This document shows, piece by piece, positions 2,098-59,189 of a stretch of DNA of 64,000 bases (its first letter is position 1; each line of letters opens with the position of its first letter). The DNA is from Candidatus Micrarchaeota archaeon (GTDB taxonomy: Archaea > B1Sed10-29). The stretch covers positions 15,968 to 79,967 of the forward strand of contig CAZOFO010000003.1 of assembly GCA_964579265.1 (NCBI GenBank), in the 5' to 3' direction. A model generated the notes under the pieces. The model did not search any database. It worked only from the letters and a program-made list of their open reading frames with translations, and was not told where the DNA came from. The position numbers were made by a program, and so were the translations under genes.

Positions 2098-3816
2098 ATG
2101 TCAAATTTTGAAATAAAAAGAAAAGACCTAGCAGGCAGAATCGGTAAATTAAAAACCAAACACGGAGAAATAGAAACACCAACTATTCTGCCAGTGGTAA
2201 ACCCAAATAAAATAACTCTAAATTCTCAAGAACTAAAAGAAACAGGATCAAAAGCAATAATCACAAATGCCTATATTCTAAAGAAAGATCACCTACACGA
2301 AGTAATTACACAAGGGATACATAACTTCCTGGATTTCCACGGACCCATAATGACGGATTCCGGAGCCTATCAACTAATGAGATACGGAAACCTTGAAATA
2401 AACAACAGAGAAATACTGGAATTTCAAGAAAAAATAAACACAGATATAGGAGTAATGCTAGACATCCCAACAGAAAGCGAAAAAGAAAAAGAAATACATA
2501 AAACAGTGAAAAAAACTATAGAAAGAGCAAAAGAAAGCGAAGAATACATAAAAAACAAAGAAACACTACACGTAGGTCCACTCCAAGGATGGAAAAAACC
2601 CAAAATATTCAGAGAATGCGTAAAAAAACAATCAAAACTAGAATTCGATCTCCATGCTCTAGGATCAATAGTGCCGACCATGGAGAAATACAGATATTCA
2701 AAACTAATGGAACCGCTTAGAATAATAAAAGAAGAAATACCTGAAAACAGACCAATACATCTCTTTGGAGCAGGACACCCGATGCTGATGCCTTTCCTAG
2801 TGGCAATGGGTGCAGATATGTTTGACTCAGCAGCTTACTCTCTTTACGCTGAAGAAGGAAGATACCTAACATCTACCGGAACCAAGAAACTTGAAGAAAT
2901 TAATTATTTACCCTGTAATTGCCCGGTATGCACAAAGGCAGAGAATAATCCACAAAATCTGGAAAAAGAAAAAACCAAGAAAAAACTAGCAAAACATAAT
3001 CTACACGTTACCTTCAAAGAAATAAATAAAATAAAACAATCTATAAAAGAAGGAACACTCTACGAACTACTTGAAACAAAATCAAGATCCCACCCATCAC
3101 TCAAAAAACTAATGGATGAACTAACAAGCGATACAAGAACAATAGAAAAAAGAGACCCAGTATCAAAGAAACACATGTTCGTAGTATCGGAATACAGCAA
3201 AAAAAGACCGGACTACAGGAGAGCAATTAAAAAAGCTAAAAAAATAAAAGAAGAACAAGAGAAAACAATAAATACTCCTGAATTTGGAGAAGTTCCTTTA
3301 AGCTTAATGGAACTCTACCCGTATTCACATACAGGAAGAGAAATAAAAGAAGATAAAAGAAAAAATATAGAAGATTTAAAGAAATTAAAAACGGCTAGTA
3401 AATACTGGCTAGGAAAAGATATAGTTCCAAAAGACGTCGAAATAAAAAAATCACCAAAAACAGGTAAAATAAGAAAACTAATCAGAAGAGGAGAACTCTA
3501 CTTAGTGATAAGAGCAAGCGACTACATGTTCCTACTACACGAAGCAGCCAAAAAACTACATAGAGAAACTAAATACCCTAAAAGAAGAATAGTAATGAAC
3601 GAAGAAGCATCTGAATTCGTTGAAAAAGGAAAAACAGTATTCAACAAATTCGTTACAGATATCGATCCCGAACTAAGACCCGGTGAACCAGTATTAATGG
3701 TAAATGAAGAAGACGAACTCCTTGCTGCAGGAGAAACTTATCTATCAGCAAAAGAAATAAAAGAAATGGACAGAGGAGAAGCAGCAAAAAACAGATGGAA
3801 AGCTAAAAGAGACTAA
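2098..3816 (+). CDS. tgtA: Archaeosine tRNA-guanine transglycosylase (ArcTGT) with C-terminal PUA-like region
   Basis: TGT catalytic motifs DFHGPIMTDSGAYQ and LFGAGHPMLMPFLVAMGADMFDSAAY; zinc site CNCPVC; 572 aa fits archaeal ArcTGT; K/E-rich insertion present. Confidence 0.85.
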   Translation: MSNFEIKRKDLAGRIGKLKTKHGEIETPTILPVVNPNKITLNSQELKETGSKAIITNAYILKKDHLHEVITQGIHNFLDFHGPIMTDSGAYQLMRYGNLEINNREILEFQEKINTDIGVMLDIPTESEKEKEIHKTVKKTIERAKESEEYIKNKETLHVGPLQGWKKPKIFRECVKKQSKLEFDLHALGSIVPTMEKYRYSKLMEPLRIIKEEIPENRPIHLFGAGHPMLMPFLVAMGADMFDSAAYSLYAEEGRYLTSTGTKKLEEINYLPCNCPVCTKAENNPQNLEKEKTKKKLAKHNLHVTFKEINKIKQSIKEGTLYELLETKSRSHPSLKKLMDELTSDTRTIEKRDPVSKKHMFVVSEYSKKRPDYRRAIKKAKKIKEEQEKTINTPEFGEVPLSLMELYPYSHTGREIKEDKRKNIEDLKKLKTASKYWLGKDIVPKDVEIKKSPKTGKIRKLIRRGELYLVIRASDYMFLLHEAAKKLHRETKYPKRRIVMNEEASEFVEKGKTVFNKFVTDIDPELRPGEPVLMVNEEDELLAAGETYLSAKEIKEMDRGEAAKNRWKAKRD

Positions 3817-3853
3817 ATAATTTTTTAAATATCTATAAATCTCCTTTTCTCCA

Positions 3854-5542
3854 CTACAATACTTTAAATACAGCTAAACAATTAGTTTCCTGGTCCTTCA
3901 CTTCACAGCCTTCAGGATAATTGTAAACTTCTTCAAACCTATCATCCGAAGATAAATACTCTACAAATTCAATAGTATATGTGTCTCTAGTAGTTTCCTC
4001 ATGAATAAAGCTACTTCTAATAATCAAGTAATCGACTCCTATAGTCTCAACTACATCATAAGACTTATCAAAATGAGTTAAAGCAATATCCATACCAGGA
4101 TATTTATTACTAATGCTCTTCCTCCTACAGTGATAATCAATCATATGATCCCAGTGATAAAAAACCACAGAATCCTCTTCTGTATTTTCTCTTACCCAAT
4201 CACATCCTTCAAAAACCATTTCAGAAGGAGTTAAATCTCTTAAAGATTCAGTATGTCCATAAGAACCAACTAAAAACAACCCAAATACAGATAAAACAAA
4301 TATAGATTTAAATAATATCTTCAATTTATCTTTAATTCTTTTTCTTCCTTTAATATAATCTACTAAGTTTCCTATTTTCCCGTAAATCTTTTCCAACGCA
4401 AAACCTCCGGCCATTGATAAAGGAGCCACTACAAATAAAGTATTTCTCGAAACACTACCAATATCTTTGTCCCAAATTAATAAATAAACAAAAAAGAAAG
4501 ATATCAAAACCCATAGAACAGGTATAAGATACTTCTTCTTCCTTTCAAAGAAATATACAATGAATCCAAGGATTCCAATTAAAAAGATAGGTACGCTGTA
4601 AGCAAAACTTATATAATTAAACAACCCTTCTTCATGTAAATTTCCCCTATGTCCTGTCATAACAGGTAGATCTACATCTATATCAGGTAATTCTTCTTCA
4701 TAGCTACCTTCTTCCCTTAAATCAATTCCAAGAGGATTCAAAACTCTATGTGAATCAAAACCTAGTCCATTTCCTGCTCTATAATTATGAATTATCCAAG
4801 GACCCATCATGAACAGAGTAATAACTATTAAAATACTGAAATCTTTGAAAAACTTATTTAAATCTTTCTTATAAACATAAAGAACTATTAAAAATACAAA
4901 AGGAATAACTAGAACATTTTGAGCAGTTAAAACTGAAAAACCAAATAAAATACCGGTTGAAAATAAATAAAATCTTTTTTCCTCCTCTAAATAACTATAA
5001 AAGAAATAAAAAGACCCTATCAAAAACATCAAAGCCACAAGCTCAACATATATAAAAACAGTATGAGTTATCAAAGCAGGGATAGAAAGATACAAAGCCA
5101 CTGAAAAAACCCCAGACTTTACAGAATGCATCTTCCTAACCAATAAAAATAATAAAAGAGCAGAAATAACTGAAACTATAGGCATAAACATCCTCATACC
5201 TACTTCACCAGCTATAGAGTAAGAAAAACCTAACAAAATAAATAACATTGGTTCTCTAGTAAGAGGACGATCTCCTCTTATTTCAGTTTCTCCAAAAACA
5301 GTTCTAGAAAGTTCAAAACTCTCACCAAAATTTTCTGATCTTGTCAAATAAAATCCCTCATCTCCATAACCTAAAGGCTCGTACAAAGAAAATCTCAAAG
5401 TGATTAGAAAACTAGATAGTAAAATTAAACCTAGTAAAAAATACCATAAATAATCCTCCCTCTCAAAAATACCATAAATCCATCCTTGGTATTTATCTAA
5501 ATCTGAAAAACCCAGACTCATATCACATCTAAATATTACCAA
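3854..5542 (-). CDS. Putative GT-C fold membrane glycosyltransferase (ArnT/PMT-like), ~12 TM plus C-terminal soluble domain
   Basis: Many TM helices; first loop has an acidic YGDEGFY motif resembling the DE motif of GT39/GT83 enzymes; 562 aa. Family assignment is tentative. Confidence 0.4.
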   Translation of the reverse strand: MVIFRCDMSLGFSDLDKYQGWIYGIFEREDYLWYFLLGLILLSSFLITLRFSLYEPLGYGDEGFYLTRSENFGESFELSRTVFGETEIRGDRPLTREPMLFILLGFSYSIAGEVGMRMFMPIVSVISALLLFLLVRKMHSVKSGVFSVALYLSIPALITHTVFIYVELVALMFLIGSFYFFYSYLEEEKRFYLFSTGILFGFSVLTAQNVLVIPFVFLIVLYVYKKDLNKFFKDFSILIVITLFMMGPWIIHNYRAGNGLGFDSHRVLNPLGIDLREEGSYEEELPDIDVDLPVMTGHRGNLHEEGLFNYISFAYSVPIFLIGILGFIVYFFERKKKYLIPVLWVLISFFFVYLLIWDKDIGSVSRNTLFVVAPLSMAGGFALEKIYGKIGNLVDYIKGRKRIKDKLKILFKSIFVLSVFGLFLVGSYGHTESLRDLTPSEMVFEGCDWVRENTEEDSVVFYHWDHMIDYHCRRKSISNKYPGMDIALTHFDKSYDVVETIGVDYLIIRSSFIHEETTRDTYTIEFVEYLSSDDRFEEVYNYPEGCEVKDQETNCLAVFKVL

Positions 5543-9142: not shown

Positions 9143-9238
9143 TACTCTTGAGAACCAATAAAGATAAAGAAACCAAAAATCAAATAAATAATACTTCCAC
9201 ATTATTTTAACCTGTAAGATAATAAAAACTATACAGAT

Positions 9239-9311
9239 AGTCCTGTAGTCTAGCGGCCAAGGATGTAGGGCTTTGGACCCTAAGACGGCGGTTCGAATCC
9301 GCCCAGGACTA
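9239..9311 (+). tRNA. tRNA-Gln (anticodon TTG), no intron, CCA not encoded
   Basis: Manual fold: 7-bp acceptor AGTCCTG/CAGGACT; anticodon arm TAGGG-CTTTGGA-CCCTA; T-arm GGCGG-TTCGAAT-CCGCC; 73 nt. Confidence 0.8.
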
Positions 9312-9318
9312 TATTTCT

Positions 9319-14379: not shown

Positions 14380-14526
14380 TTATTCTTTCCATCTAGTGTA
14401 TCCGCATTTACCGCAGTGTTCTCTGTCTTTGTGTTTTGCTAGTAGTGTTCCTTCTCCGCATTTTGGGCAGTTTGGATTGTCTTTTTCTATTTCTTTGTCT
14501 TTAACTTTGTATTTTTCTCCTTTCAT
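14380..14526 (-). CDS. rps27ae: 30S ribosomal protein S27ae (eS31), zinc ribbon
   Basis: Not in ORF track. Hand translation gives [48 protein letters not shown] (C4 ribbon). Its ATG overlaps the rps24e stop (ATGA), the conserved rps24e-rps27ae pairing. Confidence 0.8.
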
Positions 14527-14810
14527 TCTTCTTCCTCCTTGTGGTTTCTTTCTTTTTTGTATTTTTTACTGTATTTTTCCCGGTCTTCTGGTGATTCGTA
14601 TGCTTTTACTATGCATTTTGCTTCTTTCTTACCGTATTCTTGTTCTATTTTGTCTATGACTATGTTTTCTTTTTCCTGGTTTAGTTTTGCTGAGATTTTT
14701 TCTAGTACTTCTTGTCTTGAGGGTGTTTCTTCGTAATTCTTTATTTTTAGAGTAATCTTTTTTCTATTTAGTGCGGGGTTTTCTTCTTTTTTTTCTTCTA
14801 TTATCTTCAT
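14523..14810 (-). CDS. rps24e: 30S ribosomal protein S24e (eS24)
   Basis: [28 protein letters not shown] matches the S24e core; followed by rps27ae. Confidence 0.8.
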
Positions 14811-16629: not shown

Positions 16630-17824
16630 TTATTTTTCCGTATCCTATCAGTCTCCATCTTCCTCTGGTTTTTCTTGATATTGCAATTCTTGATTCTTTT
16701 TCCATTGGCATTTCTTTTTGTAGTTTGATCTTTACAGAGTTTTTAAATATCTTTTTTACTGTCCCGAGTACTGTTCCTGTTCCAACTGTTAGTACTAGTT
16801 TTTCATTAGTTTTTATAGGTTCTACTTTTTCTATTCCCATTTTTCCGCCTATTAGTTTTGGTTTTATCTTTATTTCTTTTTTCAGTGGAGGTGTTGTTCC
16901 TTTTTCTCCTATTATGGATCCTATTAGATTATCTCCTTTGGTTAGTGAGGGGTCTAGTTTTGTTTGTATTCCTATTAATCCTCCTGGTTTTGCTTTTTCT
17001 ATCTGGTGTTTTTCTGTTGATAGTGATTCTATCTCTGTTTCTAGTTTTTTTGTCTTTCCTTTTTTTCTTACTCCTGGGACTATCTCTATTTTGTCTCCTT
17101 TTTCCAGTTCTCCTTGTGTTAGGGATCCTCCTATTACTCCTCCTTTTATTTCTTCTATCTCTGTTCCTGGTTTATTTATATCGAAGGATCTTGCTACGTA
17201 GAGTTTTCCTGGTTTCTCTGGATCTCTTTCAGGGGTTGGTATTTCTTTTTCTATTGCTTCTATTAGTTTATCGTAGTTAATGTCGTGGTGAGCGGCTATT
17301 GGTATTATAGGTGCGTTTTCTGCTACTGTTCCTTTTACAAACTTTTCTATTTGTTTTTTATGTTCTTCTGCTTCTTCTTTTCCTACTAAGTCAACTTTTG
17401 TTTGGACTATAACAATGTTTTCTGTATTTGTTATGTCAAGAGCTGCTAGATGTTCTTTTGTTTGTGGTTGGGGGCATTCTTCATTAGCTGATATTACTAG
17501 TACAGCTCCGTCCATTATTCTTGCTCCGGATAATGTTACTGTCATCAGTGTTTCGTGTCCTGGGCAATCTACAAATGATACTTTTCTCAGTATTTCGGTT
17601 TCTCCTTCACATTTTTCTGGATCATAGGTGTATTTTTTTTCTCCGTTTTTGCATTTGTAGAAGGTTGTGTCGGCGTATCCTAGTTTCATGGTTATTCCTC
17701 TTTTTAGTTCTTCGCTGTGTGTATCTGTCCATTTTCCACTCAGTCCTTTGACTATTGATGTCTTTCCGTGGTCTACGTGACCTGCTAGTCCGATGTTAAC
17801 TTCGGCTTGTTTTGGTTCGTCCAT
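16622..17824 (-). CDS. eif2g: Translation initiation factor 2 subunit gamma (aIF2-gamma)
   Basis: VNIGLAGHVDHGKTS G1 motif, DCPGHE, zinc knuckle C..C/C..C, domains II/III; 400 aa. Confidence 0.9.
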   Translation of the reverse strand: MDEPKQAEVNIGLAGHVDHGKTSIVKGLSGKWTDTHSEELKRGITMKLGYADTTFYKCKNGEKKYTYDPEKCEGETEILRKVSFVDCPGHETLMTVTLSGARIMDGAVLVISANEECPQPQTKEHLAALDITNTENIVIVQTKVDLVGKEEAEEHKKQIEKFVKGTVAENAPIIPIAAHHDINYDKLIEAIEKEIPTPERDPEKPGKLYVARSFDINKPGTEIEEIKGGVIGGSLTQGELEKGDKIEIVPGVRKKGKTKKLETEIESLSTEKHQIEKAKPGGLIGIQTKLDPSLTKGDNLIGSIIGEKGTTPPLKKEIKIKPKLIGGKMGIEKVEPIKTNEKLVLTVGTGTVLGTVKKIFKNSVKIKLQKEMPMEKESRIAISRKTRGRWRLIGYGKINE

Positions 17825-17875
17825 TTTATCGCACCTTAATATCCTTCAATTGGGCGAATCTATTTTTTCTATTTT

Positions 17876-18544
17876 TTATTCTATTTGGTTTTCGATCCAT
17901 TCTTTCAGTGTTTTTCTGTCTTTATTCTGTTCTTCTGCTTCTAGTAATTTTTTGTATTCTTCTTCCTCGAAATCTTGCGCTTTTTCTTTTATTTCTGAGA
18001 CATTTTTTTCTGCTAGTTCTTCGTAATCTGTTTCTTCTTCGCTTTCTTCTGTCTCTTCTTTTTCTTCTTCACTTTCAGTTACTTGTTCATCAGCATCATC
18101 GTCTTCTTCTTCGTCCTCTTCTGCTTCTTCTTCCTCGTCTTTTTCTGGTTCTTCTTCTTTTTCTTCTGGTTCTTCTTCTCCGAATAGTACTGCTAGTTTT
18201 TTCTTTCCTTTATCTGTTACTTTTAGATTTAGTTGTTGCGTTTCTTCTGATACTATTTCTCCTCTCACTGTTTTTCTTTTTCTTTGTCCTGGTTCTTGTG
18301 CTCTGTGTCCTGTTCCTCCTTCTAGAAGAAGCTTTCTTCTTTCCGTTGTTTTTACTCCTCTTTTCATTGGGAATCCTTGTTTGTCGCTTCCTCCTGTTAT
18401 TCGGAAGCTATGTCCTTTTAGATCGATTAGGCTTCCTTCTACTTCTTCTCCTATTTTCTTATCGTGTAGTGCTTTTGCTTTTTTGTCTTCTATCTCTTTT
18501 TGGTATGTTTTTCCTGTTTCTGGGTCGGATACTACTATTTGCAT
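17876..18544 (-). CDS. rps6e: 30S ribosomal protein S6e (eS6) with long acidic tract and C-terminal extension
   Basis: MQIVVSDPETGKTYQKEI...GHSFRITGGSDKQGFPMKRG is the S6e core; poly-D/E tract; C-terminal ~50 aa shared with uS4 (see findings). Confidence 0.85.
   Translation of the reverse strand: MQIVVSDPETGKTYQKEIEDKKAKALHDKKIGEEVEGSLIDLKGHSFRITGGSDKQGFPMKRGVKTTERRKLLLEGGTGHRAQEPGQRKRKTVRGEIVSEETQQLNLKVTDKGKKKLAVLFGEEEPEEKEEEPEKDEEEEAEEDEEEDDDADEQVTESEEEKEETEESEEETDYEELAEKNVSEIKEKAQDFEEEEYKKLLEAEEQNKDRKTLKEWIENQIE
17879..18031 (-). repeat. Copy A of a ~150-bp duplicated coding module (C-terminal extension of eS6)
   Basis: Nucleotide and protein similarity to 33335..33487: shared runs gtgtttttctgtcttt and cttttatttctga. 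Protein DYEELAEKNVSEIKEKAQDF...QNKDRKTLKEWIENQI. Confidence 0.7.
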
Positions 18545-18602
18545 GTTTTTACACCTCTTGTGATTTTTTGTTCTTTTTGTGTTTTGTTGTTTTAGGTAAA
18601 GT

Positions 18603-20348
18603 TTATCTTTTTATTTTCCTTATTTCTTTTAGTAGTTGCTTGTTTTTGAATCCTTCTCTTTCAAGTTCGTATGTTTCGTCTACTGGTACTTCAGTGTAGA
18701 TAGTTTCTCCTTCTTCTATTTGTCTTCCTACAGTGACATCTGTTATTGCTATCGCTGCTTCTCCACCTTGTTCTAGTAGTTTTATTGAGTGTTGATCTTT
18801 TTGTATGCTTTTTATTTCTCCCAGTCTTTCTCCTTCTTTGTTCATTAATGGGTATCCTGGTTTTAGTTTTCCTTGTTGTAGTTTTATTCCTACTATTGCT
18901 GGTTTGCTTTTTCTGAAGGTGTGTTCTGGGAGTATTTTGATTTTTGCTGGGTATACGTATTTTTCGAGTCTTTCTTGTTTTTCTCTTTTTTCTTCTTTTT
19001 CTTTCCATTTCTGGTATTTTTCTTCTAGTTTATATATTATATTTGATTCGAATATAGGAACGTTTAGCTCTTCAGCTTTTTTCTCTATTTCTTCCGGTAT
19101 CTTGGTGTTAAATGCGAATATCGCGCCTAAGTATCTGTCTTTTTCTTTTATGGTTTTTGCTTCCGTTAAGTCTTTTTTTCTCACTTGTCCTATTTCTGCT
19201 CTTCTTATTGGTATTTCTTTTTCTTTGAATAAATCTATTATACCTTCTAGTGATCCTATGGTGTCTGCTCTTATTATTACTCCTTCTCCTTTATTTTTTA
19301 TAGTGACTTTTTCAAGCTGTTCTTCTACTTCTTTCTTTTTTTCTTCTGTTTTTTCATTAGCTATTATTACTGGTGAACCTGCTATTGCTTCTTCAAGTCC
19401 TGGTGCTGCTATCTTTATTCCTTCTGCAGCTTCTACTTTTTTAACTCTTTTAAAGTCTTTTCCTTTTGCTTCTCTCATTTCTTTTAGTTTTTTCGGTTTT
19501 AATAGTGCTCTTATCTTTGTTTCTTTTGCTCCGTTTTTTGTTCCAAATACTATTTTGTCTCCTTTTTCTATTTTTCCTTCGTATATTATGGTGTCTATCG
19601 TGGTTCCTAGTCCTTTGACTTCTTTTACTTCTAGTATGGTTCCTTCTCCTGTTTTTTCTTTTTCTACTTCTAGGTCTTTTTTCATGTATCTTTGTGAAAG
19701 TCCTGCGAGGAACATTAGGAGTTCTGGTATTCCTTCTTTAGTTTCTGCTGATGTTGGGATGATTATTATGGTGTCTTCTGGATTGTCTACTTTATCGAAT
19801 CTGTTGGCGTTTATTCCGTATTCTGCTACTTCTCCTATGATATCGTATATCTTGTCTTGTAGTCTATTTTTTACTCTTTCACTCTGTTTTTTGATTGTCT
19901 TGGTGAATGGTTGTCCTTTGTTTGGTGTCCATCCTTGTATTAGATCTACTTTGTTTAGGGCTATTATGAACGGGCATTTGTGTTTTTTGAGTATTTCTAG
20001 AGCTTCTTTTGTTTGTGGTTGGATACCTTGCATTACGTCTATTACTAGTACTGCGAGGTCTGCGGTTTTTCCTCCTCTTTTTCTCAGGGAGGTGAATGCT
20101 TGGTGTCCTGGTGTGTCTATGAATAGGAGTCCTGGTATTTCTAGTTTGTATCCGTATTTTTCTATTATTTCTTTACTTTGTTTTTCTACTGTCTGGGTTG
20201 GTATGAAACTTGCTCCTACGTGTTGTGTTATTTTACCTGGTTCTCCTTCTAGAACTGTGGATCCTCTTATTGAGTCCAGTATTGCTGTTTTTCCATGGTC
20301 CACATGCCCTAGTACACATATTATCGGTGATCTAATCATTTCTATCAC
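18603..20348 (-). CDS. infB: Translation initiation factor aIF5B (IF2 homolog)
   Basis: IICVLGHVDHGKTAILD, DTPGHQAF, NKVD GTPase motifs; 581 aa. Confidence 0.9.
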   Translation of the reverse strand: MIEMIRSPIICVLGHVDHGKTAILDSIRGSTVLEGEPGKITQHVGASFIPTQTVEKQSKEIIEKYGYKLEIPGLLFIDTPGHQAFTSLRKRGGKTADLAVLVIDVMQGIQPQTKEALEILKKHKCPFIIALNKVDLIQGWTPNKGQPFTKTIKKQSERVKNRLQDKIYDIIGEVAEYGINANRFDKVDNPEDTIIIIPTSAETKEGIPELLMFLAGLSQRYMKKDLEVEKEKTGEGTILEVKEVKGLGTTIDTIIYEGKIEKGDKIVFGTKNGAKETKIRALLKPKKLKEMREAKGKDFKRVKKVEAAEGIKIAAPGLEEAIAGSPVIIANEKTEEKKKEVEEQLEKVTIKNKGEGVIIRADTIGSLEGIIDLFKEKEIPIRRAEIGQVRKKDLTEAKTIKEKDRYLGAIFAFNTKIPEEIEKKAEELNVPIFESNIIYKLEEKYQKWKEKEEKREKQERLEKYVYPAKIKILPEHTFRKSKPAIVGIKLQQGKLKPGYPLMNKEGERLGEIKSIQKDQHSIKLLEQGGEAAIAITDVTVGRQIEEGETIYTEVPVDETYELEREGFKNKQLLKEIRKIKR

Positions 20349-20431
20349 TTTTGTTTTATACCTCGTCTAGCAAGGCTATTTAGAAGTTAGCCTCAGTCTG
20401 GTTGATCCTTTCCGAGGTTTTTCTTTTTAGG

Positions 20432-21043
20432 TTATTCGTTTTTCTTTTCGAGGTCTTCTATCTTTGGTCCGTCTTGTGGTGCTCTCATTATTTCTTCTTC
20501 TGCTCTTTCGTACTCTTCTTCGTATAGTTCGTCTTCATTGAACCAGATTTTGATTTCTTTTTCTGCATTTTCTTTGTCTGCAGCGTGAATTAGATTTCTT
20601 ATGGGTCTATTTCTTTTATTGGCGTATTCGTATGATTCTGTGTGAAAGTCTCCTCTTACTGTTCCTGGTCTGGCTTCTCTTGGTTCTGTTTCTCCTGCTA
20701 CTTTTCTACCTGCTTCTGGCGCGTGTGGTCCTTGGAATACTGCTGCTATTATAGGTGTTTTCTTTATGTATTCTCTTAATTGTTTTACTATTATCATTCC
20801 GTATTCTTCTGTGTCCCAGGGAAATGCTGTTCCTTCTGCTTCGAATTGCTTTTTTGCTTTTTCGCCTATTTGTTCTGCCATTGAGTCTGGATAATGTTCT
20901 TCTAGTTGTTCTTGAGTGGCTTTCGTCATTTTCATTCCTATTAATCTGAGTCCTTTTTGTTCAAATCTTTCAATTATTTTTCCTATTATCCCTCTTTTTA
21001 CTCCGTCTGGTTTTAGTAGTATGAGGGTTCTGGTGTCTTTCAT
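20432..21043 (-). CDS. ndk: Nucleoside diphosphate kinase (with internal insertion and acidic C-terminal extension)
   Basis: TLILLKPDGVKRGIIGKIIERFE and catalytic NLIHAAD. Start placed at the second Met (MKDTRTL) because the upstream ATG at 21073 would overlap rpl24e. Confidence 0.75.
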   Translation of the reverse strand: MKDTRTLILLKPDGVKRGIIGKIIERFEQKGLRLIGMKMTKATQEQLEEHYPDSMAEQIGEKAKKQFEAEGTAFPWDTEEYGMIIVKQLREYIKKTPIIAAVFQGPHAPEAGRKVAGETEPREARPGTVRGDFHTESYEYANKRNRPIRNLIHAADKENAEKEIKIWFNEDELYEEEYERAEEEIMRAPQDGPKIEDLEKKNE

Positions 21044-21057
21044 TTGCTCACCTTCTT

Positions 21058-21216
21058 TTATTTCTTGGTCCATTCTGTCTTTTTTGGATCTCTTTCTAGT
21101 TTTCTATGGTTCTTTTCGCATTTGCTCGAGCAGTAGGGGAATCTTTCTCCGTCCTGTTTGATGTATATTTTTCCTTTTCCTTGTGGTATTTCTTCTCCGC
21201 AGAAGCTGCAGTCCAT
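21058..21216 (-). CDS. rpl24e: 50S ribosomal protein L24e (eL24)
   Basis: Not in ORF track. Hand translation MDCSFCGEEIPQGKGKIYIKQDGERFPYCSSKCEKNHRKLERDPKKTEWTKK has the zinc-binding L24e signature; sits in the conserved L7Ae-S28e-L24e-ndk order. Confidence 0.8.
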   Translation of the reverse strand: MDCSFCGEEIPQGKGKIYIKQDGERFPYCSSKCEKNHRKLERDPKKTEWTKK

Positions 21217-32916: not shown

Positions 32917-33303
32917 TTATACTCTTCTTCCTCTTTTTCCGCCTGGTTTTTTGGTTCCATCGTGTGGGATTGGTGTGACGTCTTCTATTTTTCCTACGTT
33001 TAATCTGCTTCTTGATAGTGCTCTTATTGCTGCCTGTGCTCCTGGTCCTGGCATTTTTGATTTGTGTCCTCCGGGTGCTCTAATTTTTATATGTATTCCT
33101 TTTAATCCTTTTTTAGATGCTTCTTTTGCTGCTCTTTTTGCTGCTTTCATTGCGGTGTGTGGTTCTCCTTTTTTTCTATCTGCTTTTGCTATCATTCCTC
33201 CGCTACATTTTGATAGTGTTTCGGAGCCTGTTGAATCTGTTATTGTTATTATGGTGTTGTTGTTTGATGAATGTACGTGAGCTATTCCCCATTTCTTTTT
33301 CAT
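32917..33303 (-). CDS. rps11: 30S ribosomal protein S11 (uS11)
   Basis: [19 protein letters not shown]...[25 protein letters not shown]. Confidence 0.85.
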
Positions 33304-33322: not shown

Positions 33323-34063
33323 TTAGTCTTCTTTGTTTATCTGTCTTTTTATCCATTTTTTAAGTGTTTTTCTGTCTTTGTTTTGTTTTTCTGTTTCTAG
33401 TAGTTCTTCGTATTGTTTTTTATTGAAGTTTTGTGATTTTTCTTTTATTTCTGAAATGTTTTTCTTGGATAGTTTTTCGTAGTCTTTTTCTTCTGCTTCT
33501 TCTTTTGTTTCTTTTTTCGGTTTTGTTCTTTTTTGTTTCATTGTTTTTTGTTCTCTGGTTTTCTTTTGTGGTTTTTTACTAGCTTCTGCTTGTTCTATTG
33601 GTCTTCTGTACCAGTCTATTGTGTTTTCTTCTTCTTTTGGGATTATTATTCCTGGTTTTGTGGTTTTTCTGCCGTTGATTTCTATGTGTCCATGAGTTAT
33701 AAGTTGTCTTGATTGTTTAGGTGTTCTTCCGTATCCTTTTCTCCATGCTAGAGTTTGTAGTCTTCTTTCCAGGTAGTCTTTAGTAGTCATTGATAAGACG
33801 TCGTCTATTCCTCCGTTTTCTTTTATGAATCCTTGTCTTCTTAATTTCTTGAGGAAGTTTTCTTTCTTTCTTTTTACTTCTTCTTCTCTCTGTCCGATTA
33901 TTTGTCTTGCTATTTTTCTATATTTTCTTACTTGTGATTGAGCTTTCCATACTTCTTTCTTGTTTTTCAATCCGTAGTTCTTTTTTAGTTCTTTTTCTTT
34001 TGATAAGTTCTGCCAGTTCCAAGGGTGTCTTGGTTTTTGGTATTTCTTGCTTTTTTTCCTCAT
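33323..34063 (-). CDS. rps4: 30S ribosomal protein S4 (uS4) with C-terminal extension shared with eS6
   Basis: S4 N-terminal and S4 RNA-binding domain (QLITHGHIEINGRKTTKPGIII); extra ~70-aa K/E-rich tail ending in the module DYEKLSKKNISEIKEKSQNF...NKDRKTLKKWI. Confidence 0.85.
   Translation of the reverse strand: MRKKSKKYQKPRHPWNWQNLSKEKELKKNYGLKNKKEVWKAQSQVRKYRKIARQIIGQREEEVKRKKENFLKKLRRQGFIKENGGIDDVLSMTTKDYLERRLQTLAWRKGYGRTPKQSRQLITHGHIEINGRKTTKPGIIIPKEEENTIDWYRRPIEQAEASKKPQKKTREQKTMKQKRTKPKKETKEEAEEKDYEKLSKKNISEIKEKSQNFNKKQYEELLETEKQNKDRKTLKKWIKRQINKED
33335..33487 (-). repeat. Copy B of the ~150-bp duplicated coding module (C-terminal extension of uS4)
   Basis: Protein DYEKLSKKNISEIKEKSQNF...QNKDRKTLKKWIKRQI, ~60% identical to the eS6 tail; DNA similarity visible by eye. 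Confidence 0.7.
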
Positions 34064-34074
34064 TTCTGATCACT

Positions 34075-34551
34075 TTATTTTTGAACTTCTCTTTTATCTA
34101 CTTCTACTCCTAGTTCTAGTCCGCTTCTTCCTGTTGTTTGTGTTCTCTGTCCTCTTACTCTTAGACCGTGTTTGTGTCTTATTCCTTTGTAGCAATGTAT
34201 TTCTTTCATGAATTCAATATCTCTTCTTCTTTGTAGATCTAGGTTTGATCCTGTTAAGTGTTTGTTTTCTCCTGTTTTTCTGTCTTTTCTTCTGTTTAGC
34301 AGGTGTTTTGGTATTCCGTATTCGTTTGGTTCTTCTATGATTTTTTCTACTTTTTCTATTTCTTCTTCAGTTAGGTCTCCTACTTTGGTCTCTAGTTTTC
34401 TTTCTTTGTCTGTTTCTTTGATTAGTTCTGTTGCTATTGATTTGGATAGGTTTCTACCTATTCCTTTTATTTCTTTGAAGGCTGTTCTGATTTCTTTTTC
34501 TCCGTTTATGTCTTTTCCTGCTATACGGATTATTTTCTTTGTGTCTGGCAT
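34075..34551 (-). CDS. rps13: 30S ribosomal protein S13 (uS13)
   Basis: IRIAGKDINGEKEIRTAFKEIKGIGRNLSKSI ... GLRVRGQRTQTTGR. Confidence 0.85.
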   Translation of the reverse strand: MPDTKKIIRIAGKDINGEKEIRTAFKEIKGIGRNLSKSIATELIKETDKERKLETKVGDLTEEEIEKVEKIIEEPNEYGIPKHLLNRRKDRKTGENKHLTGSNLDLQRRRDIEFMKEIHCYKGIRHKHGLRVRGQRTQTTGRSGLELGVEVDKREVQK

Positions 34552-34761: not shown

Positions 34762-34843
34762 CGCTGGGAAGGGGATTCGAACCCCTGTGGCCGTGAGGCC
34801 ACCAGCTTTCCAGGCTGGCGCATTACCGCTCTGCCATCCCAGC
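34762..34843 (-). tRNA. tRNA-Ser (anticodon GGA), class II with long variable arm, no intron
   Basis: Manual fold: acceptor GCTGGGA/TCCCAGC, D-loop AGCGGTAA, anticodon arm CCAGC-CTGGAAA-GCTGG, variable arm TGGCC-TCAC-GGCCA, T-arm AGGGG-TTCGAAT-CCCCT; 82 nt. Confidence 0.8.
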
Positions 34844-45694: not shown

Positions 45695-45910
45695 TTAGTT
45701 CTTTGCACCTCTTTCTTTTAATATTGTTTTTATCCTTGCGATTGTTCTTCTTATTTCTTTGATTCCTCCAGGGTTATCTGGTTGGGTTCCTGAAGCTATT
45801 GATGCTTTTTCTTGAGCTAGTTCGTTTTGTAGTTGATTTAATTGTTCTTTTAGTTCTTCGTTTCCCATTTCTCTTAGTTCGTGAATTTTCTTTATTGCCA
45901 TTTTAATCAC
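45695..45910 (-). CDS. rpl29: 50S ribosomal protein L29 (uL29)
   Basis: IKKIHELREMGNEELKEQLNQLQNEL. Confidence 0.8.
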   Translation of the reverse strand: MIKMAIKKIHELREMGNEELKEQLNQLQNELAQEKASIASGTQPDNPGGIKEIRRTIARIKTILKERGAKN

Positions 45911-46526
45911 TTTCTTCTTCTTTTATTTCTATGTATTCTTCTGGGTTTTTCTTGTCTCTGAATTGTGCTTCTGGTGGTGCTATTCTTACTTTTATTCCTA
46001 CTTTTCCTTGTGGTAGTACTATGCTGTCTTTTGTTTCTCTTATTTTTTTGGTTTCTTCTCCTGCTTTTTTGAGATATCCTCTTTGTGCTTTTGCTTGTCT
46101 TGAGTAGGTGTTTGCTCCTGTTATGACTCCTGTGATTATGATCTCTGCTCCTATTGCTCCGTCATCCATGATGGCGTTTATTGCTTTTTTAGTCGCTCTG
46201 TTTGCTCTGATGCCTTTTGAAAGCATTGATTTTATCCAGTTACTAACTAGTTCTGGGTGTAGGTTTCTTCTTTCTACTTCTTCAACATCTATTTCTACAT
46301 CTTCTAGTTTTAGGTCTTTTTCTAGTTTCTTTTTTATTCTTTTGACTGTTTTTCCTCTTTTACCTATTATTAATCCTGGTTTTTCTGCTGTTATTCTTAT
46401 TCTGTGGCCTAAGGTTGTTTTTTCTATGTCTATGTTTACTATGCCTGCTTTTGATAGTTCTTCTCTTAGCAGTTCTTTTGCGTTTTGTGTTTTTATTGAT
46501 CCTTTTACGAATTCTTTTTCTTTCAT
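45903..46526 (-). CDS. rps3: 30S ribosomal protein S3 (uS3)
   Basis: KH domain ...ITAEKPGLIIGKRGKTVKRIKKKL...; 207 aa. Confidence 0.85.
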   Translation of the reverse strand: MKEKEFVKGSIKTQNAKELLREELSKAGIVNIDIEKTTLGHRIRITAEKPGLIIGKRGKTVKRIKKKLEKDLKLEDVEIDVEEVERRNLHPELVSNWIKSMLSKGIRANRATKKAINAIMDDGAIGAEIIITGVITGANTYSRQAKAQRGYLKKAGEETKKIRETKDSIVLPQGKVGIKVRIAPPEAQFRDKKNPEEYIEIKEEESD

Positions 46527-48416: not shown

Positions 48417-49235
48417 TTAATTGTTTTGTATTTTGTTTTTTATTTTTTTGATCGCGTCTTCAGTGTATATTGTGAGTCTTCCAGGTTGTCCTCCTGGTGC
48501 GAGTTGTTCTATTGATAGTTCTTTTACTGTTGTTGCTTCTGCTCCAGGTATGTTCCGTGTTGCTCTCTTTATTCCGTTGTTTTTTCCAGTTACTATTAGT
48601 GCTGTTTTTCTATATTTGTTTTTTCTTCCTCTTGCTTTTCCTTTTCCTGCTCTTGTTTTTTTATTTTTTGATTTTTCTAGGTCTTTTTTTATTCCTATTT
48701 CTTCAAGTAGTTTTGTTATTTCTTTTGTTTTTTTGTATTTTTCAGCTTCGTTGTCTATTATTATTGGTAATTCTAGGTCTTCAGGTATTTTATGTCCTCT
48801 TTTTTCTATTGTTTCTCTGTTTGCTGTGGCTTTTATTGCTTCTTCTAGGGCTCTGTTTTTTTCTTTTTTGTTTATTTCTTTTTCTATTTTTTCTTCTGAT
48901 CTTGGTGGATGTGCTCTGTGTCCTCCTCTTGCTTGTGGTACTCTTTTTACTTCTCCAGGTATTCCTCCAGGATGTATTACTCTTGGTAGTCTTGCTCTTC
49001 CGCTGTTTCTTGTTCTTATGTATACTCCTCTTCTTCCTCTGTATCTTGCAGTTGTTCTGAATCCTGCTCTTAAGTCGCTTCCTTTTTGCTGATGTTTTTT
49101 ACTTCTTTCTGATTTGTGAGCTTTTTGGATTAGGTCTTTCCTTTCTGTTTTTTCTTGAAGGATTCTTGGAACTTCTATCTTTTTCTCTTTATTTTTTCCT
49201 GTGCTGTGCACTTTTACTTTTTTTCCTTTTGTCAT
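48417..49235 (-). CDS. rpl4: 50S ribosomal protein L4 (uL4/L1e)
   Basis: ...PRVIHPGGIPGEVKRVPQARGGHRAHPPRSEEK... Confidence 0.85.
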   Translation of the reverse strand: MTKGKKVKVHSTGKNKEKKIEVPRILQEKTERKDLIQKAHKSERSKKHQQKGSDLRAGFRTTARYRGRRGVYIRTRNSGRARLPRVIHPGGIPGEVKRVPQARGGHRAHPPRSEEKIEKEINKKEKNRALEEAIKATANRETIEKRGHKIPEDLELPIIIDNEAEKYKKTKEITKLLEEIGIKKDLEKSKNKKTRAGKGKARGRKNKYRKTALIVTGKNNGIKRATRNIPGAEATTVKELSIEQLAPGGQPGRLTIYTEDAIKKIKNKIQNN

Positions 49236-51381: not shown

Positions 51382-51463
51382 CGCCGGGAAAGGGATTCGA
51401 ACCCTTGAGGCCGTAAGGCCACCGGCCCTCAAAACCGGCGCATTACCGCTCTGCCATCCCGGC
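51382..51463 (-). tRNA. tRNA-Ser (anticodon TGA), class II, no intron
   Basis: Manual fold: acceptor GCCGGGA/TCCCGGC, D-loop AGCGGTAA, anticodon arm CCGGT-TTTGAGG-GCCGG, variable arm GGCC-TTAC-GGCC, T-arm AAGGG-TTCGAAT-CCCTT; 82 nt. Confidence 0.75.
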
Positions 51464-58034: not shown

Positions 58035-59189
58035 TCACTGTTCTTTTTCTTGTTGTAGGTCTATTTGTAGGTTTACTGATCCTGTTCCGAGTGGTATTGG
58101 GTTTCCCACTATTATATTTTCTGCTATTCCTTCTAGTTCGTCTTTTTCTCCTTTTTGAGCTGCTTTTAATAGGTGTTTTATTTGTTCTTCGAATGCTGCT
58201 CTTGCTAGTACTGATTTTTTGTCTCCTGATATTCCGTGTCTTCCTATTGCTTGTAGTTCTCCATCTCTTGTTATTGCATCGGCGATTAATAATATGTGTC
58301 TTTTGTCAATATTATATTCTTCAGTTATTTGACTTAGTTCTTTGAATATTATTTGTCTTGCTGCTTCTATTCCGAGTGTTTTGTATGTTTCTGGTATTGA
58401 GTTTGATTCTGTTCTTTCTGAGTCTATTCCTTCTATCTCTAGTACTTCTTCTAGATTTGATCCGTCTGTGTGTATCTCGTATCTTGTTTCTCCTTCTTCT
58501 GTTTCTTTTTCTACTAGTGTTGCTCTTTCTATTCCTTTTACTCCTTTTATCCTTGTGTTTTCGGTTTTTTCAATGTATCTTCTTAGTGATTTAAGGCTTG
58601 ATGCGTTTGGTTCGAATATGATTTCGTCTTCTTCGACTTTTTCAGGTTTTCTTCTTATATTTTCTTTTATTTTATCAGCTACTTCTCTTGCTTCTAAGCT
58701 GTATTTTTCCATTTTTTCTTTTTCTGGTTTTACTTTTATTTTTTCTTCATTTATGTCTTCTTCTATTTTTGCTATGTCTTTTGCTTTTGTTTCTTCTATT
58801 TTTTTCGCTATTTCTATTACTTCTTCTTTGTTTTTTTCTATATCTTTTTTTGGTTTTATTCTGCATACTTCTCTTTTTGGTGTTTTTCTTACTTCTAGGA
58901 TTTCTTCTACTCTTGGTAGTCCTTGTACTACGCTGACTCCTTCGGATAGTCCTGCAACGTGGAATGTTTTTAGTGTCATTTGGGTTGCTCTTTCTCCTAT
59001 TGCTTGTGCTGCTAGTGCTCCTGCTGCTTCTCCTGGTTCTATTTCTCTTCTTTTGTATTCTTCATAAGTTTTTTCAAATAGTTTTTCTGTTTCTTTCTTA
59101 TTTAGGTCTTCTGCTTTCTCCTTTGTTTTTTCCAGGAGTTTTTTTGGTAGTTTTTCTTCGTATTTTTTGTATGGGTCTTTTTTTGTCAT
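58035..59189 (-). CDS. rpoA2: DNA-directed RNA polymerase subunit A'' (Rpo1C)
   Basis: EPGEAAGALAAQAIGERATQMTLKTFHVAGLSEGVSVVQGLPRVEEIL (trigger loop/jaw region). Confidence 0.9.
   Translation of the reverse strand: MTKKDPYKKYEEKLPKKLLEKTKEKAEDLNKKETEKLFEKTYEEYKRREIEPGEAAGALAAQAIGERATQMTLKTFHVAGLSEGVSVVQGLPRVEEILEVRKTPKREVCRIKPKKDIEKNKEEVIEIAKKIEETKAKDIAKIEEDINEEKIKVKPEKEKMEKYSLEAREVADKIKENIRRKPEKVEEDEIIFEPNASSLKSLRRYIEKTENTRIKGVKGIERATLVEKETEEGETRYEIHTDGSNLEEVLEIEGIDSERTESNSIPETYKTLGIEAARQIIFKELSQITEEYNIDKRHILLIADAITRDGELQAIGRHGISGDKKSVLARAAFEEQIKHLLKAAQKGEKDELEGIAENIIVGNPIPLGTGSVNLQIDLQQEKEQ

Follow-up and report, generated by a model that had tools for sequence, protein, structure and literature searches.

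A C-terminal module shared by ribosomal proteins eS6 and uS4 in a salt-loving DPANN archaeon

Why should two unrelated ribosomal proteins, which occupy separate places on the small subunit, end in the same fifty or so residues? The question is raised by a stretch of 64,000 nucleotides (the window) from Candidatus Micrarchaeota archaeon B1Sed10-29 (assembly GCA_964579265.1, contig CAZOFO010000003.1, positions 15,968 to 79,967 of the forward strand), a salt-loving member of the DPANN archaea (named for Diapherotrites, Parvarchaeota, Aenigmarchaeota, Nanoarchaeota and Nanohaloarchaeota). In the archaeal 30S subunit, eS6 lies at the foot of the body and uS4 at the shoulder, on the solvent side, and the two are not neighbours. 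A preliminary description, made from the letters of the window, had noticed that its eS6 (222 residues) and uS4 (246 residues) share a C-terminal tail. Here we find that the tails are homologous copies of a small domain, predicted to fold into four helices, that has many other hosts, and we propose that it was copied between genes long ago in this lineage and may act as a tethered recruitment module.

One tail on two ribosomal proteins

Aligned without gaps, the eS6 and uS4 tails are identical at 32 of 49 positions (65%) and score positive at 46 of 49 (BLASTP with composition adjustment, E 2e-19), which bears out the homology first noticed by eye. Composition rich in lysine and glutamate (K/E) was rejected as the cause of the match, because 200,000 shuffles of one tail gave 5.6 identities on average and never more than 16, compared with the 32 observed; the positional identity, on which a pairwise alignment had been proposed as a check, is therefore real. 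The two DNA segments singled out at the start, 17879-18031 and 33335-33487, correspond to eS6 residues 172-222 and uS4 residues 193-243, and the tail DNA is 78% identical over 147 nucleotides, the next-best ungapped match in the window reaching 56%. The copies differ at 17 of the 49 residues and stand 14 charge units apart (−9 versus +5), with core and loop residues unchanged.

The eS6 gene (17876..18544, minus strand) encodes an S6e core, an acidic linker and the C-terminal module. Its core (residues 1-121; 18182..18544, minus) matches positions 1-124 of the 125 in the Pfam S6e profile (PF01092; E 9e-44, 149 bits against a cutoff of 26), and the protein scores 156 bits with NCBIfam NF003294 (cutoff 135), which places it in the eS6 family. 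The Glu/Asp-rich linker (residues 122-172; 18029..18181, minus) has a net charge of −33; the module (residues 173-222; 17879..18028, minus; net charge −9) runs to the stop codon at 17876-17878. The uS4 gene (33323..34063, minus) encodes a uS4 core (residues 1-155; 33599..34063, minus), a basic, Lys-rich linker of net charge +6 (residues 156-193; 33485..33598, minus), the module (residues 194-243; 33335..33484, minus; net charge about +5) and then Lys-Glu-Asp before the stop codon (33323-33334, minus). Within the core, TIGR01018 spans residues 2-154 and the Pfam S4 domain (PF01479) residues 100-145. The protein was assigned to the archaeal type of uS4 on profiles above cutoff (NF003139, 207 bits against 138; TIGR01018, 174 bits against 82) and on its position in a uS13-uS4-uS11-RpoD operon, flanked by uS13 (34075-34551) and uS11 (32917-33303). 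Relatives keep this gene order, as they do the order aIF5B-eS6-aIF2gamma.

Solved archaeal chains of eS6 (125-151 residues) and uS4 (159-218 residues) match the cores of the window proteins, and no solved archaeal eS6 or uS4 chain matches the tail module, in agreement with the view that such a tail is not standard in archaeal ribosomes. The fusions themselves are not frameshift or assembly artefacts: the module is fused in frame in four clusters of eS6 orthologues (P0001-P0004) and seven of uS4 (P0121-P0127), which stem from independent JGI, ENA and NCBI assemblies, and the artefact that had been named at the outset as a possible undoing of the observation is thereby set aside.

An AlphaFold2 model of the eS6 tail, built with an alignment of 134 sequences, is compact and has four helices (mean predicted local distance difference test score (pLDDT) 89.3, predicted template modelling score (pTM) 0.71), where the preliminary description had expected two. 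The helices are predicted at residues 6-9, 14-21, 26-38 and 43-53 of the 54-residue eS6 construct, whose numbering is used for the module throughout. Conserved positions comprise Tyr6, Thr/Asn13, Lys18, Asp28, Leu32-Leu33-Glu-Ala-Glu36, Asn/Gly39-Lys-Asp-Arg42-Lys-Thr-Leu and Trp48. Glu36 and Arg42 are invariant (100%) across the family, Tyr6, Lys18, Leu33, Lys40 and Thr44 are about 90% conserved, and position 48 is aromatic in 99% of sequences. Both window copies carry these motif residues, deviating at position 28, where Glu or Gln stands for the usual Asp. Each tail is thus shown to be a copy of one domain of about 50 residues, predicted to fold independently into four helices and joined to its ribosomal core by a low-complexity linker.

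Conservation follows the same division. In eS6, tail and core are conserved to the same degree (72-78% and 74-78% identity to orthologues, respectively, both gapless), while the linker varies among relatives in length and sequence (41-55% identity, 5-10 gap columns). For uS4, identity to orthologues is 77-78% in the core and 58% in the tail, both gapless, and 50% in the linker, with 4-5 gap columns. Ratios of non-synonymous to synonymous substitution rates (dN/dS) against orthologues are 0.07-0.12 for the eS6 module and 0.23-0.27 for the uS4 module. Judged from these sequence comparisons, the module is evidently under purifying selection and the linkers evolve freely.

Hosts and habitats of the module

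A profile of 11 tails was searched against 1.84 billion representative proteins, giving 178 matches at E ≤ 1e-3 and 32 at E ≤ 1e-10, so the search of related genomes for further hosts suggested in the preliminary description was productive, with many unrelated partners. The profile recovers the window tails themselves with E values of 1.6e-22 (eS6) and 1.7e-20 (uS4), over profile positions 1/2-54; matching at full length, carrying the motif residues and predicted to form four helices, both belong to the family. A six-frame profile scan found no copies in the 64 kb beyond those on eS6 and uS4, and the module is absent from the window's eS24 (14523-14810), uS3 (45903-46526) and RpoA'' (58035-59189), proteins that are hosts in other lineages.

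Re-scanning yielded 190 domain instances in 159 proteins, of which 91 were C-terminal, 56 N-terminal and 43 internal. Long flexible linkers are usual among the carriers. The module also occurs in tandem arrays of up to 4-5 copies and as stand-alone proteins of 54-71 residues. Among 147 members, the Pfam partners include Ribosomal_S24e (14), L31e (5), uL24/KOW (2-3), uS3 and bacterial L31, together with Rpb1_5 (RNA polymerase A''), ParA/MinD, KaiC, MCP, NuoC, Gins51 and C2H2 zinc fingers; a uL22 host (P0312, an unnamed representative) was recognised by eye, and a DsbA-like thioredoxin protein is also a host. Transmembrane segments are present in 61 of 148 carriers, in which the module is N-terminal in 44, C-terminal in 14 and internal in 3. 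In many single- or double-pass membrane proteins, the module presumably lies at the cytoplasmic end. A role specific to eS6 and uS4, or to the 30S surface, as had been suggested, finds no support in this range of hosts, which in other lineages takes in proteins of the large subunit and of the membrane as well as RNA polymerase and ParA. The alternative suggestion of a mobile low-complexity module fares better in part: the many hosts agree with mobility, and the four-helix model, at a pLDDT of 89, does not agree with low complexity.

Membrane-anchored carriers show conserved synteny, adjoining eL15 or lying between ProRS and Mre11, which gives no functional clue. One such gene encodes a protein with two transmembrane segments and a C-terminal module, and its surroundings are conserved in Nanohaloarchaeota-like genomes (L013, L029, L039 and L048, at about 3000-4200): it adjoins a divergently transcribed eL15-like gene, recognised by eye, and lies upstream of a conserved open reading frame (ORF) of 95 residues.

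Forty-five module loci were recovered from GTDB species genomes. The named carriers are Nanohaloarchaeota (Nanohalobium, Nanoanaerosalina and others), Asbonarchaeum (Asbonarchaeaceae), soda-lake ‘Ca. Iainarchaeum’ and metagenome-assembled genomes (MAGs) labelled Hadarchaeota or Micrarchaeota; the ‘Ca. Iainarchaeum’ MAGs are the nearest relatives of the window and carry eS6 with the module. Most named carriers were sampled in soda lakes, salterns or brines of the Danakil, and several GTDB loci have no habitat label. Host proteins differ between lineages, with eS24, eL31, uL24 and uS3 carrying the module in MAGs labelled Nanohaloarchaeota or Hadarchaeota and eS6 and uS4 carrying it in the lineage of the window, and the module has been captured repeatedly. 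In two MAGs of the bacterial Candidate Phyla Radiation (CPR) from Danakil samples (Paceibacteria and Magasanikbacteria; L045 3593-4168 and L047 3572-4156), the host is bL31, which points to sharing between archaeal and bacterial ultrasmall organisms. Viral contigs scanned with the tail alignment contained no relatives of the module. Separately, a MAG contig labelled ‘Colwellia polaris’ (L036, 3704-4144) carries an archaeal eS24 with the module; its sample is shared with a Nanohaloarchaea MAG (L025), and the contig is almost certainly mis-binned.

None of the 147 members has a Pfam match that takes in the module, NCBIfam and PHROGs gave nothing above cutoff for it, and the PDB gave no match and no structural similarity to a known nucleic-acid-binding fold. 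Without a match in these four resources, the family is apparently undescribed. Accessory domains fused to ribosomal proteins are a known phenomenon, of which the module family is best described as a new case.

Several named folds were considered and rejected. Ubiquitin and the beta-grasp fold do not agree with an all-helical model; a single ubiquitin gives E of about 0.5-1, Pfam gives no ubiquitin match, and the PDB ubiquitin matches were discounted because their significance comes only from summing polyubiquitin repeats (nine weak ones, 4.7 bits each). Neither tail contains Cys or His, and neither has a Pfam match to the C2H2 zinc finger (PF00096). The helix-extended-helix group (SAP, HeH, LEM, Rho_N) failed on its defining features, with no SAP, HeH, Rho_N or HTH match in Pfam. 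The C-terminal TPR of Fis1 (PF14853) reaches 14.6-17.6 bits over 25-30 residues, against a gathering cutoff of 25.3. Less clear-cut are recurrent sub-threshold matches to the C-terminus of the Rv1109c lipid-droplet profile (NF033649; 12-24.5 bits, E 2e-5 to 4e-2, cutoff 110). The majority run across the acidic linker and could reflect composition, but in P0250 the match (residues 3-56, E 0.01) is confined to the module; the module proteins are not members of that family, although a remote relationship to its C-terminal 50 residues may exist.

Possible functions

What would such a domain do on so many hosts? Its ribosomal hosts are found on the large as well as the small subunit, at surface sites unrelated to one another, which means that it does not serve one ribosomal site or function. 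We tentatively favour, at somewhat less than even odds, a role as a tethered protein–protein recruitment or localisation module. On its flexible leash, the module would bind a shared partner, which could be other copies of itself, among them those anchored in the membrane; in this way, ribosomes, RNA polymerase and some peripheral proteins would be connected with one another or with the membrane. Linkers of 51 and 38 residues, as on eS6 and uS4, could span well over 100 angstroms. We infer tethering from the 61 of 148 carriers with transmembrane segments, from the soluble hosts MinD/ParA, an MCP-type transducer and NuoC, which are proteins that work at the membrane elsewhere, from the stand-alone and tandem forms and from the long linkers. 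A bolder form of the proposal, which we consider doubtful, is that the module is a common ‘address label’ of ultrasmall DPANN and CPR symbionts, mostly hypersaline, exchanged horizontally between them, with copies binding each other or a shared hub. If that were true, transcription, translation and the membrane would be physically coupled in cells that hold about a hundred ribosomes.

An alternative that we regard as unlikely sees in the module a small accessory domain for binding nucleic acid, probably RNA. Held on surface ribosomal proteins and RNA polymerase, it would contact rRNA, mRNA or nascent transcripts, and the Asn-Lys-Asp-Arg-Lys-Thr loop, where helix 4 begins, would be its phosphate-binding element. 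The best-conserved polar residues are basic (Lys18, Lys40, Arg42, Lys43 and Lys46), most soluble hosts are machines that handle RNA or DNA, and some carriers have an N-terminal winged-helix domain (P0241). A parallel comes from the next-closest DPANN relatives, in which a C2H2 zinc finger occupies the position of the module on eS6 (P0005) and uS4 (P0128, P0129, P0130, P0135 and P0137), with PF00096 annotated on three of these proteins. The eS6 and uS4 fingers, seen in different genomes so far, are near-identical (CPECG-x-[ST]F-x-SE[KR]GMKIH) and follow K/E linkers comparable to those before the module; several small proteins (P0244, P0256, P0260, P0301, P0303, L014 and L028) combine zinc finger and module. 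It seems from this parallel that, in these archaea, small domains on a leash are attached preferentially to the C-termini of eS6 and uS4. Nucleic-acid binding sits less easily with a mean net charge of −6.9 for the domain, although nucleic-acid binders of halophiles can be acidic, with the membrane proteins that make up 61 of 148 carriers, and with hosts that have no obvious need of RNA binding (NuoC, ParA/MinD, the DsbA-like thioredoxin protein and MCP). Nor does the model resemble a known nucleic-acid-binding fold, and the Pfam searches described above gave none of the small DNA- or RNA-binding families looked for (SAP, HeH, Rho_N and HTH).

Quite unlikely, in our estimate, is a role in cis that needs no partner, in which the module and its linker form a hydrated, charged ‘bristle’ that aids solubility, high-salt tolerance or assembly by keeping strongly basic ribosomal proteins, and other hosts, soluble before they are assembled, much as has been proposed for the chaperone role of ubiquitin on eS31 and eL40. 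The mostly hypersaline origin of the named carriers would fit, as would the strongly acidic character of most copies and linkers (domain mean −6.9, eS6 linker −33), the diversity of hosts, the lack of a conserved attachment point on the ribosome and the long K/E/D-rich tails on many DPANN eS6 and uS4 proteins that have no module. Acidity alone was rejected as the working principle, as the uS4 copy is net positive: that copy (+5) and its linker (+6) keep the same core and loop. Linker charges differ more than module charges do (−33 on eS6 versus +6 on uS4), and because the core and the Asn-Lys-Asp-Arg-Lys-Thr loop stay constant despite such shifts, a purely electrostatic or solubility role is disfavoured. 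Such a role would not need complete conservation of Glu36 and Arg42, or conservation near 90% of Tyr6, Lys18, Lys40 and Thr44, across phyla, and would not lead one to expect stand-alone proteins of 54-71 residues or tandem arrays.

History of the fusions and comparison with known systems

The preliminary description had taken the DNA similarity to imply a relatively recent duplication. We find otherwise: of the 32 shared residues, 24 use the same codon in both copies, where the codon bias of the genome alone predicts 22.5; the proportion of synonymous differences (pS) between the window copies is 0.52, as between orthologues of different species (0.42-0.70); and the fusions have been kept across several species. 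In place of the Leu-Asp-Tyr that is canonical for the family, a derived signature, Phe24 ... Glu/Gln28-Tyr29, is found only in the eS6 tails of this lineage, in its uS4 tails except P0126 and P0127, and in P0245, a 492-residue membrane protein (L053, 6001-7479) from a soda-lake metagenome shared with the relatives of the window. P0245 is thus a third host in the lineage, with an internal copy of the lineage-specific subtype between long K/E-rich low-complexity regions. That the eS6 and uS4 copies have this signature in common supports an old duplication within the lineage, in which the module would have been copied from one gene to the other. Since the most divergent uS4 orthologues, P0126 and P0127, keep the canonical Leu-Asp-Tyr, uS4 would have acquired the module first, to be copied to eS6 later, and the uS4 fusion is probably the older of the two. 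The eS6 and P0245 copies would have arisen by within-genome copying in the ancestor of the lineage, and the copies would afterwards have been maintained by purifying selection.

In a sister species, the tails of eS6 (gene at L050, 10001-10660) and uS4 (gene at L049, 10001-10756) are 90% identical in both protein and nucleotide sequence (pS 0.34-0.38), much closer to each other than to their respective window orthologues, and gene conversion between the two appears to have taken place. That apparent recent conversion, with the 78% DNA identity and shared runs of the window copies, is what can be said for a recent event or artefact (fresh duplication or gene conversion, assembly chimera or K/E composition), a reading that is scarcely credible overall and is refuted for the window by codon identity at the level of bias (24 versus 22.5), the pS of 0.52, the absence of any shuffle among 200,000 above 16 of 49 identities, the fusions in four and seven orthologue clusters from independent assemblies, and the 17 differing residues and 14 charge units between the copies.

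Taken as a whole, the combination of domain identity, lineage history and tethering is the best explanation that we can offer, and we give it about an even chance (roughly 0.5). Several points weigh against it. The binding partner is hypothetical; a structural salt bridge, and not a binding site, may be what the invariant Glu36 and Arg42 form; and the co-occurrence with, and replacement by, zinc fingers fits nucleic-acid binding equally well. An AlphaFold2 model of natural tandem copies (pLDDT 68, pTM 0.60, from only 11 sequences) is too poor to reveal contacts between domains. The membrane topology is presumed, the 45 GTDB loci were found with one narrow peptide pattern and the hypersaline restriction rests on their names, and the eS6 and uS4 of the sister species come from different assemblies of one ENA project, their common genome being presumed.

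Other features of the window are recorded here for completeness. Its plus strand is 44.8% T and 20.3% A, an extreme strand asymmetry; beyond about 9.3 kb, almost every gene is on the minus strand and its codons are rich in A (AAA for 91% of Lys, GAA for 93% of Glu). Because of this bias, long antisense ORFs run without stops (for example, 17812-18699 and 18805-20370, both plus) and are artefacts of the scarcity of stop codons. NDK (20432-21073, 213 residues), uL4 (48417-49235, 272 residues) and RpoA'' (58035-59189, 384 residues) each carry inserted segments, some 35 to 80 residues long, that their Pfam profiles lack; these fit the indel-rich proteins reported for fast-evolving DPANN archaea. 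Three tRNA genes are present: Ser-GGA (34762-34843, minus), Ser-TGA (51382-51463, minus) and Gln-TTG (9238-9312, plus). Ser-GGA lies between the uS13 and Cbf5 genes, and both Ser tRNA genes are found among ribosomal protein genes.

Ribosomal proteins are among the best conserved of all, and the capture of one domain by at least eight of them, and by RNA polymerase, is unusual; that it happened in ultrasmall organisms, mostly of one kind of habitat, and across the divide between archaea and bacteria makes it odder still. This suggests an unrecognised layer of organisation or adaptation in the gene-expression machinery of salt-adapted DPANN and CPR organisms. The 50-residue domain is well defined and can be expressed and tested directly, and co-cultures of cultivated Nanohaloarchaeota with their hosts make experiments approachable, as MAGs of that phylum carry the module on uL24, uS3, eS24, eL31 and RpoA''. 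For phylogenomics of DPANN archaea, tails left untrimmed will distort alignments of universal marker proteins.

How do the tails compare with known additions to ribosomal proteins? The zinc-finger tails of the next-closest relatives share the attachment points at the C-termini of eS6 and uS4 and comparable K/E-rich linkers; they differ in having a Cys2His2 zinc-binding fold and chemistry, whereas the window tails have neither Cys nor His. The C-terminal tail of eukaryotic eS6, which is phosphorylated, is likewise a lengthening of about 100 residues, largely helical and charged. It is not homologous, as matches to eukaryotic chains end at about query residue 120-138; two chains, 6zvj_r (to residue 163) and 6zu5_SG0 (to residue 206), align through the acidic linker, with the module itself unmatched. 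The eukaryotic tail runs along the body of the 40S subunit, unlike a globular domain on a leash.

Closer in arrangement are the ubiquitin fusions to eS31 (S27a) and eL40, in which a small folding domain is likewise joined in frame to two unrelated ribosomal proteins, copies within a genome are kept similar, and the proposed role is extra-ribosomal or related to assembly and not catalytic. Ubiquitin, however, stands at the N-terminus and is removed by cleavage, its fold is a beta-grasp and its function is known, whereas the module is C-terminal, predicted to be all-helical and placed behind a linker of 40-50 residues. As a functional analogy we favour the stalk proteins (aP0/aP1 in archaea; P0/P1/P2), whose C-terminal element is a tethered bait that recruits factors. 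There, too, one C-terminal element is present on different ribosomal proteins, behind a hinge that is flexible and often acidic; in the stalk, this element is only a short peptide, its hosts are stalk proteins and its partners translational GTPases, while the module would be a folded domain of 50 residues held out, by analogy, from eS6 and uS4.

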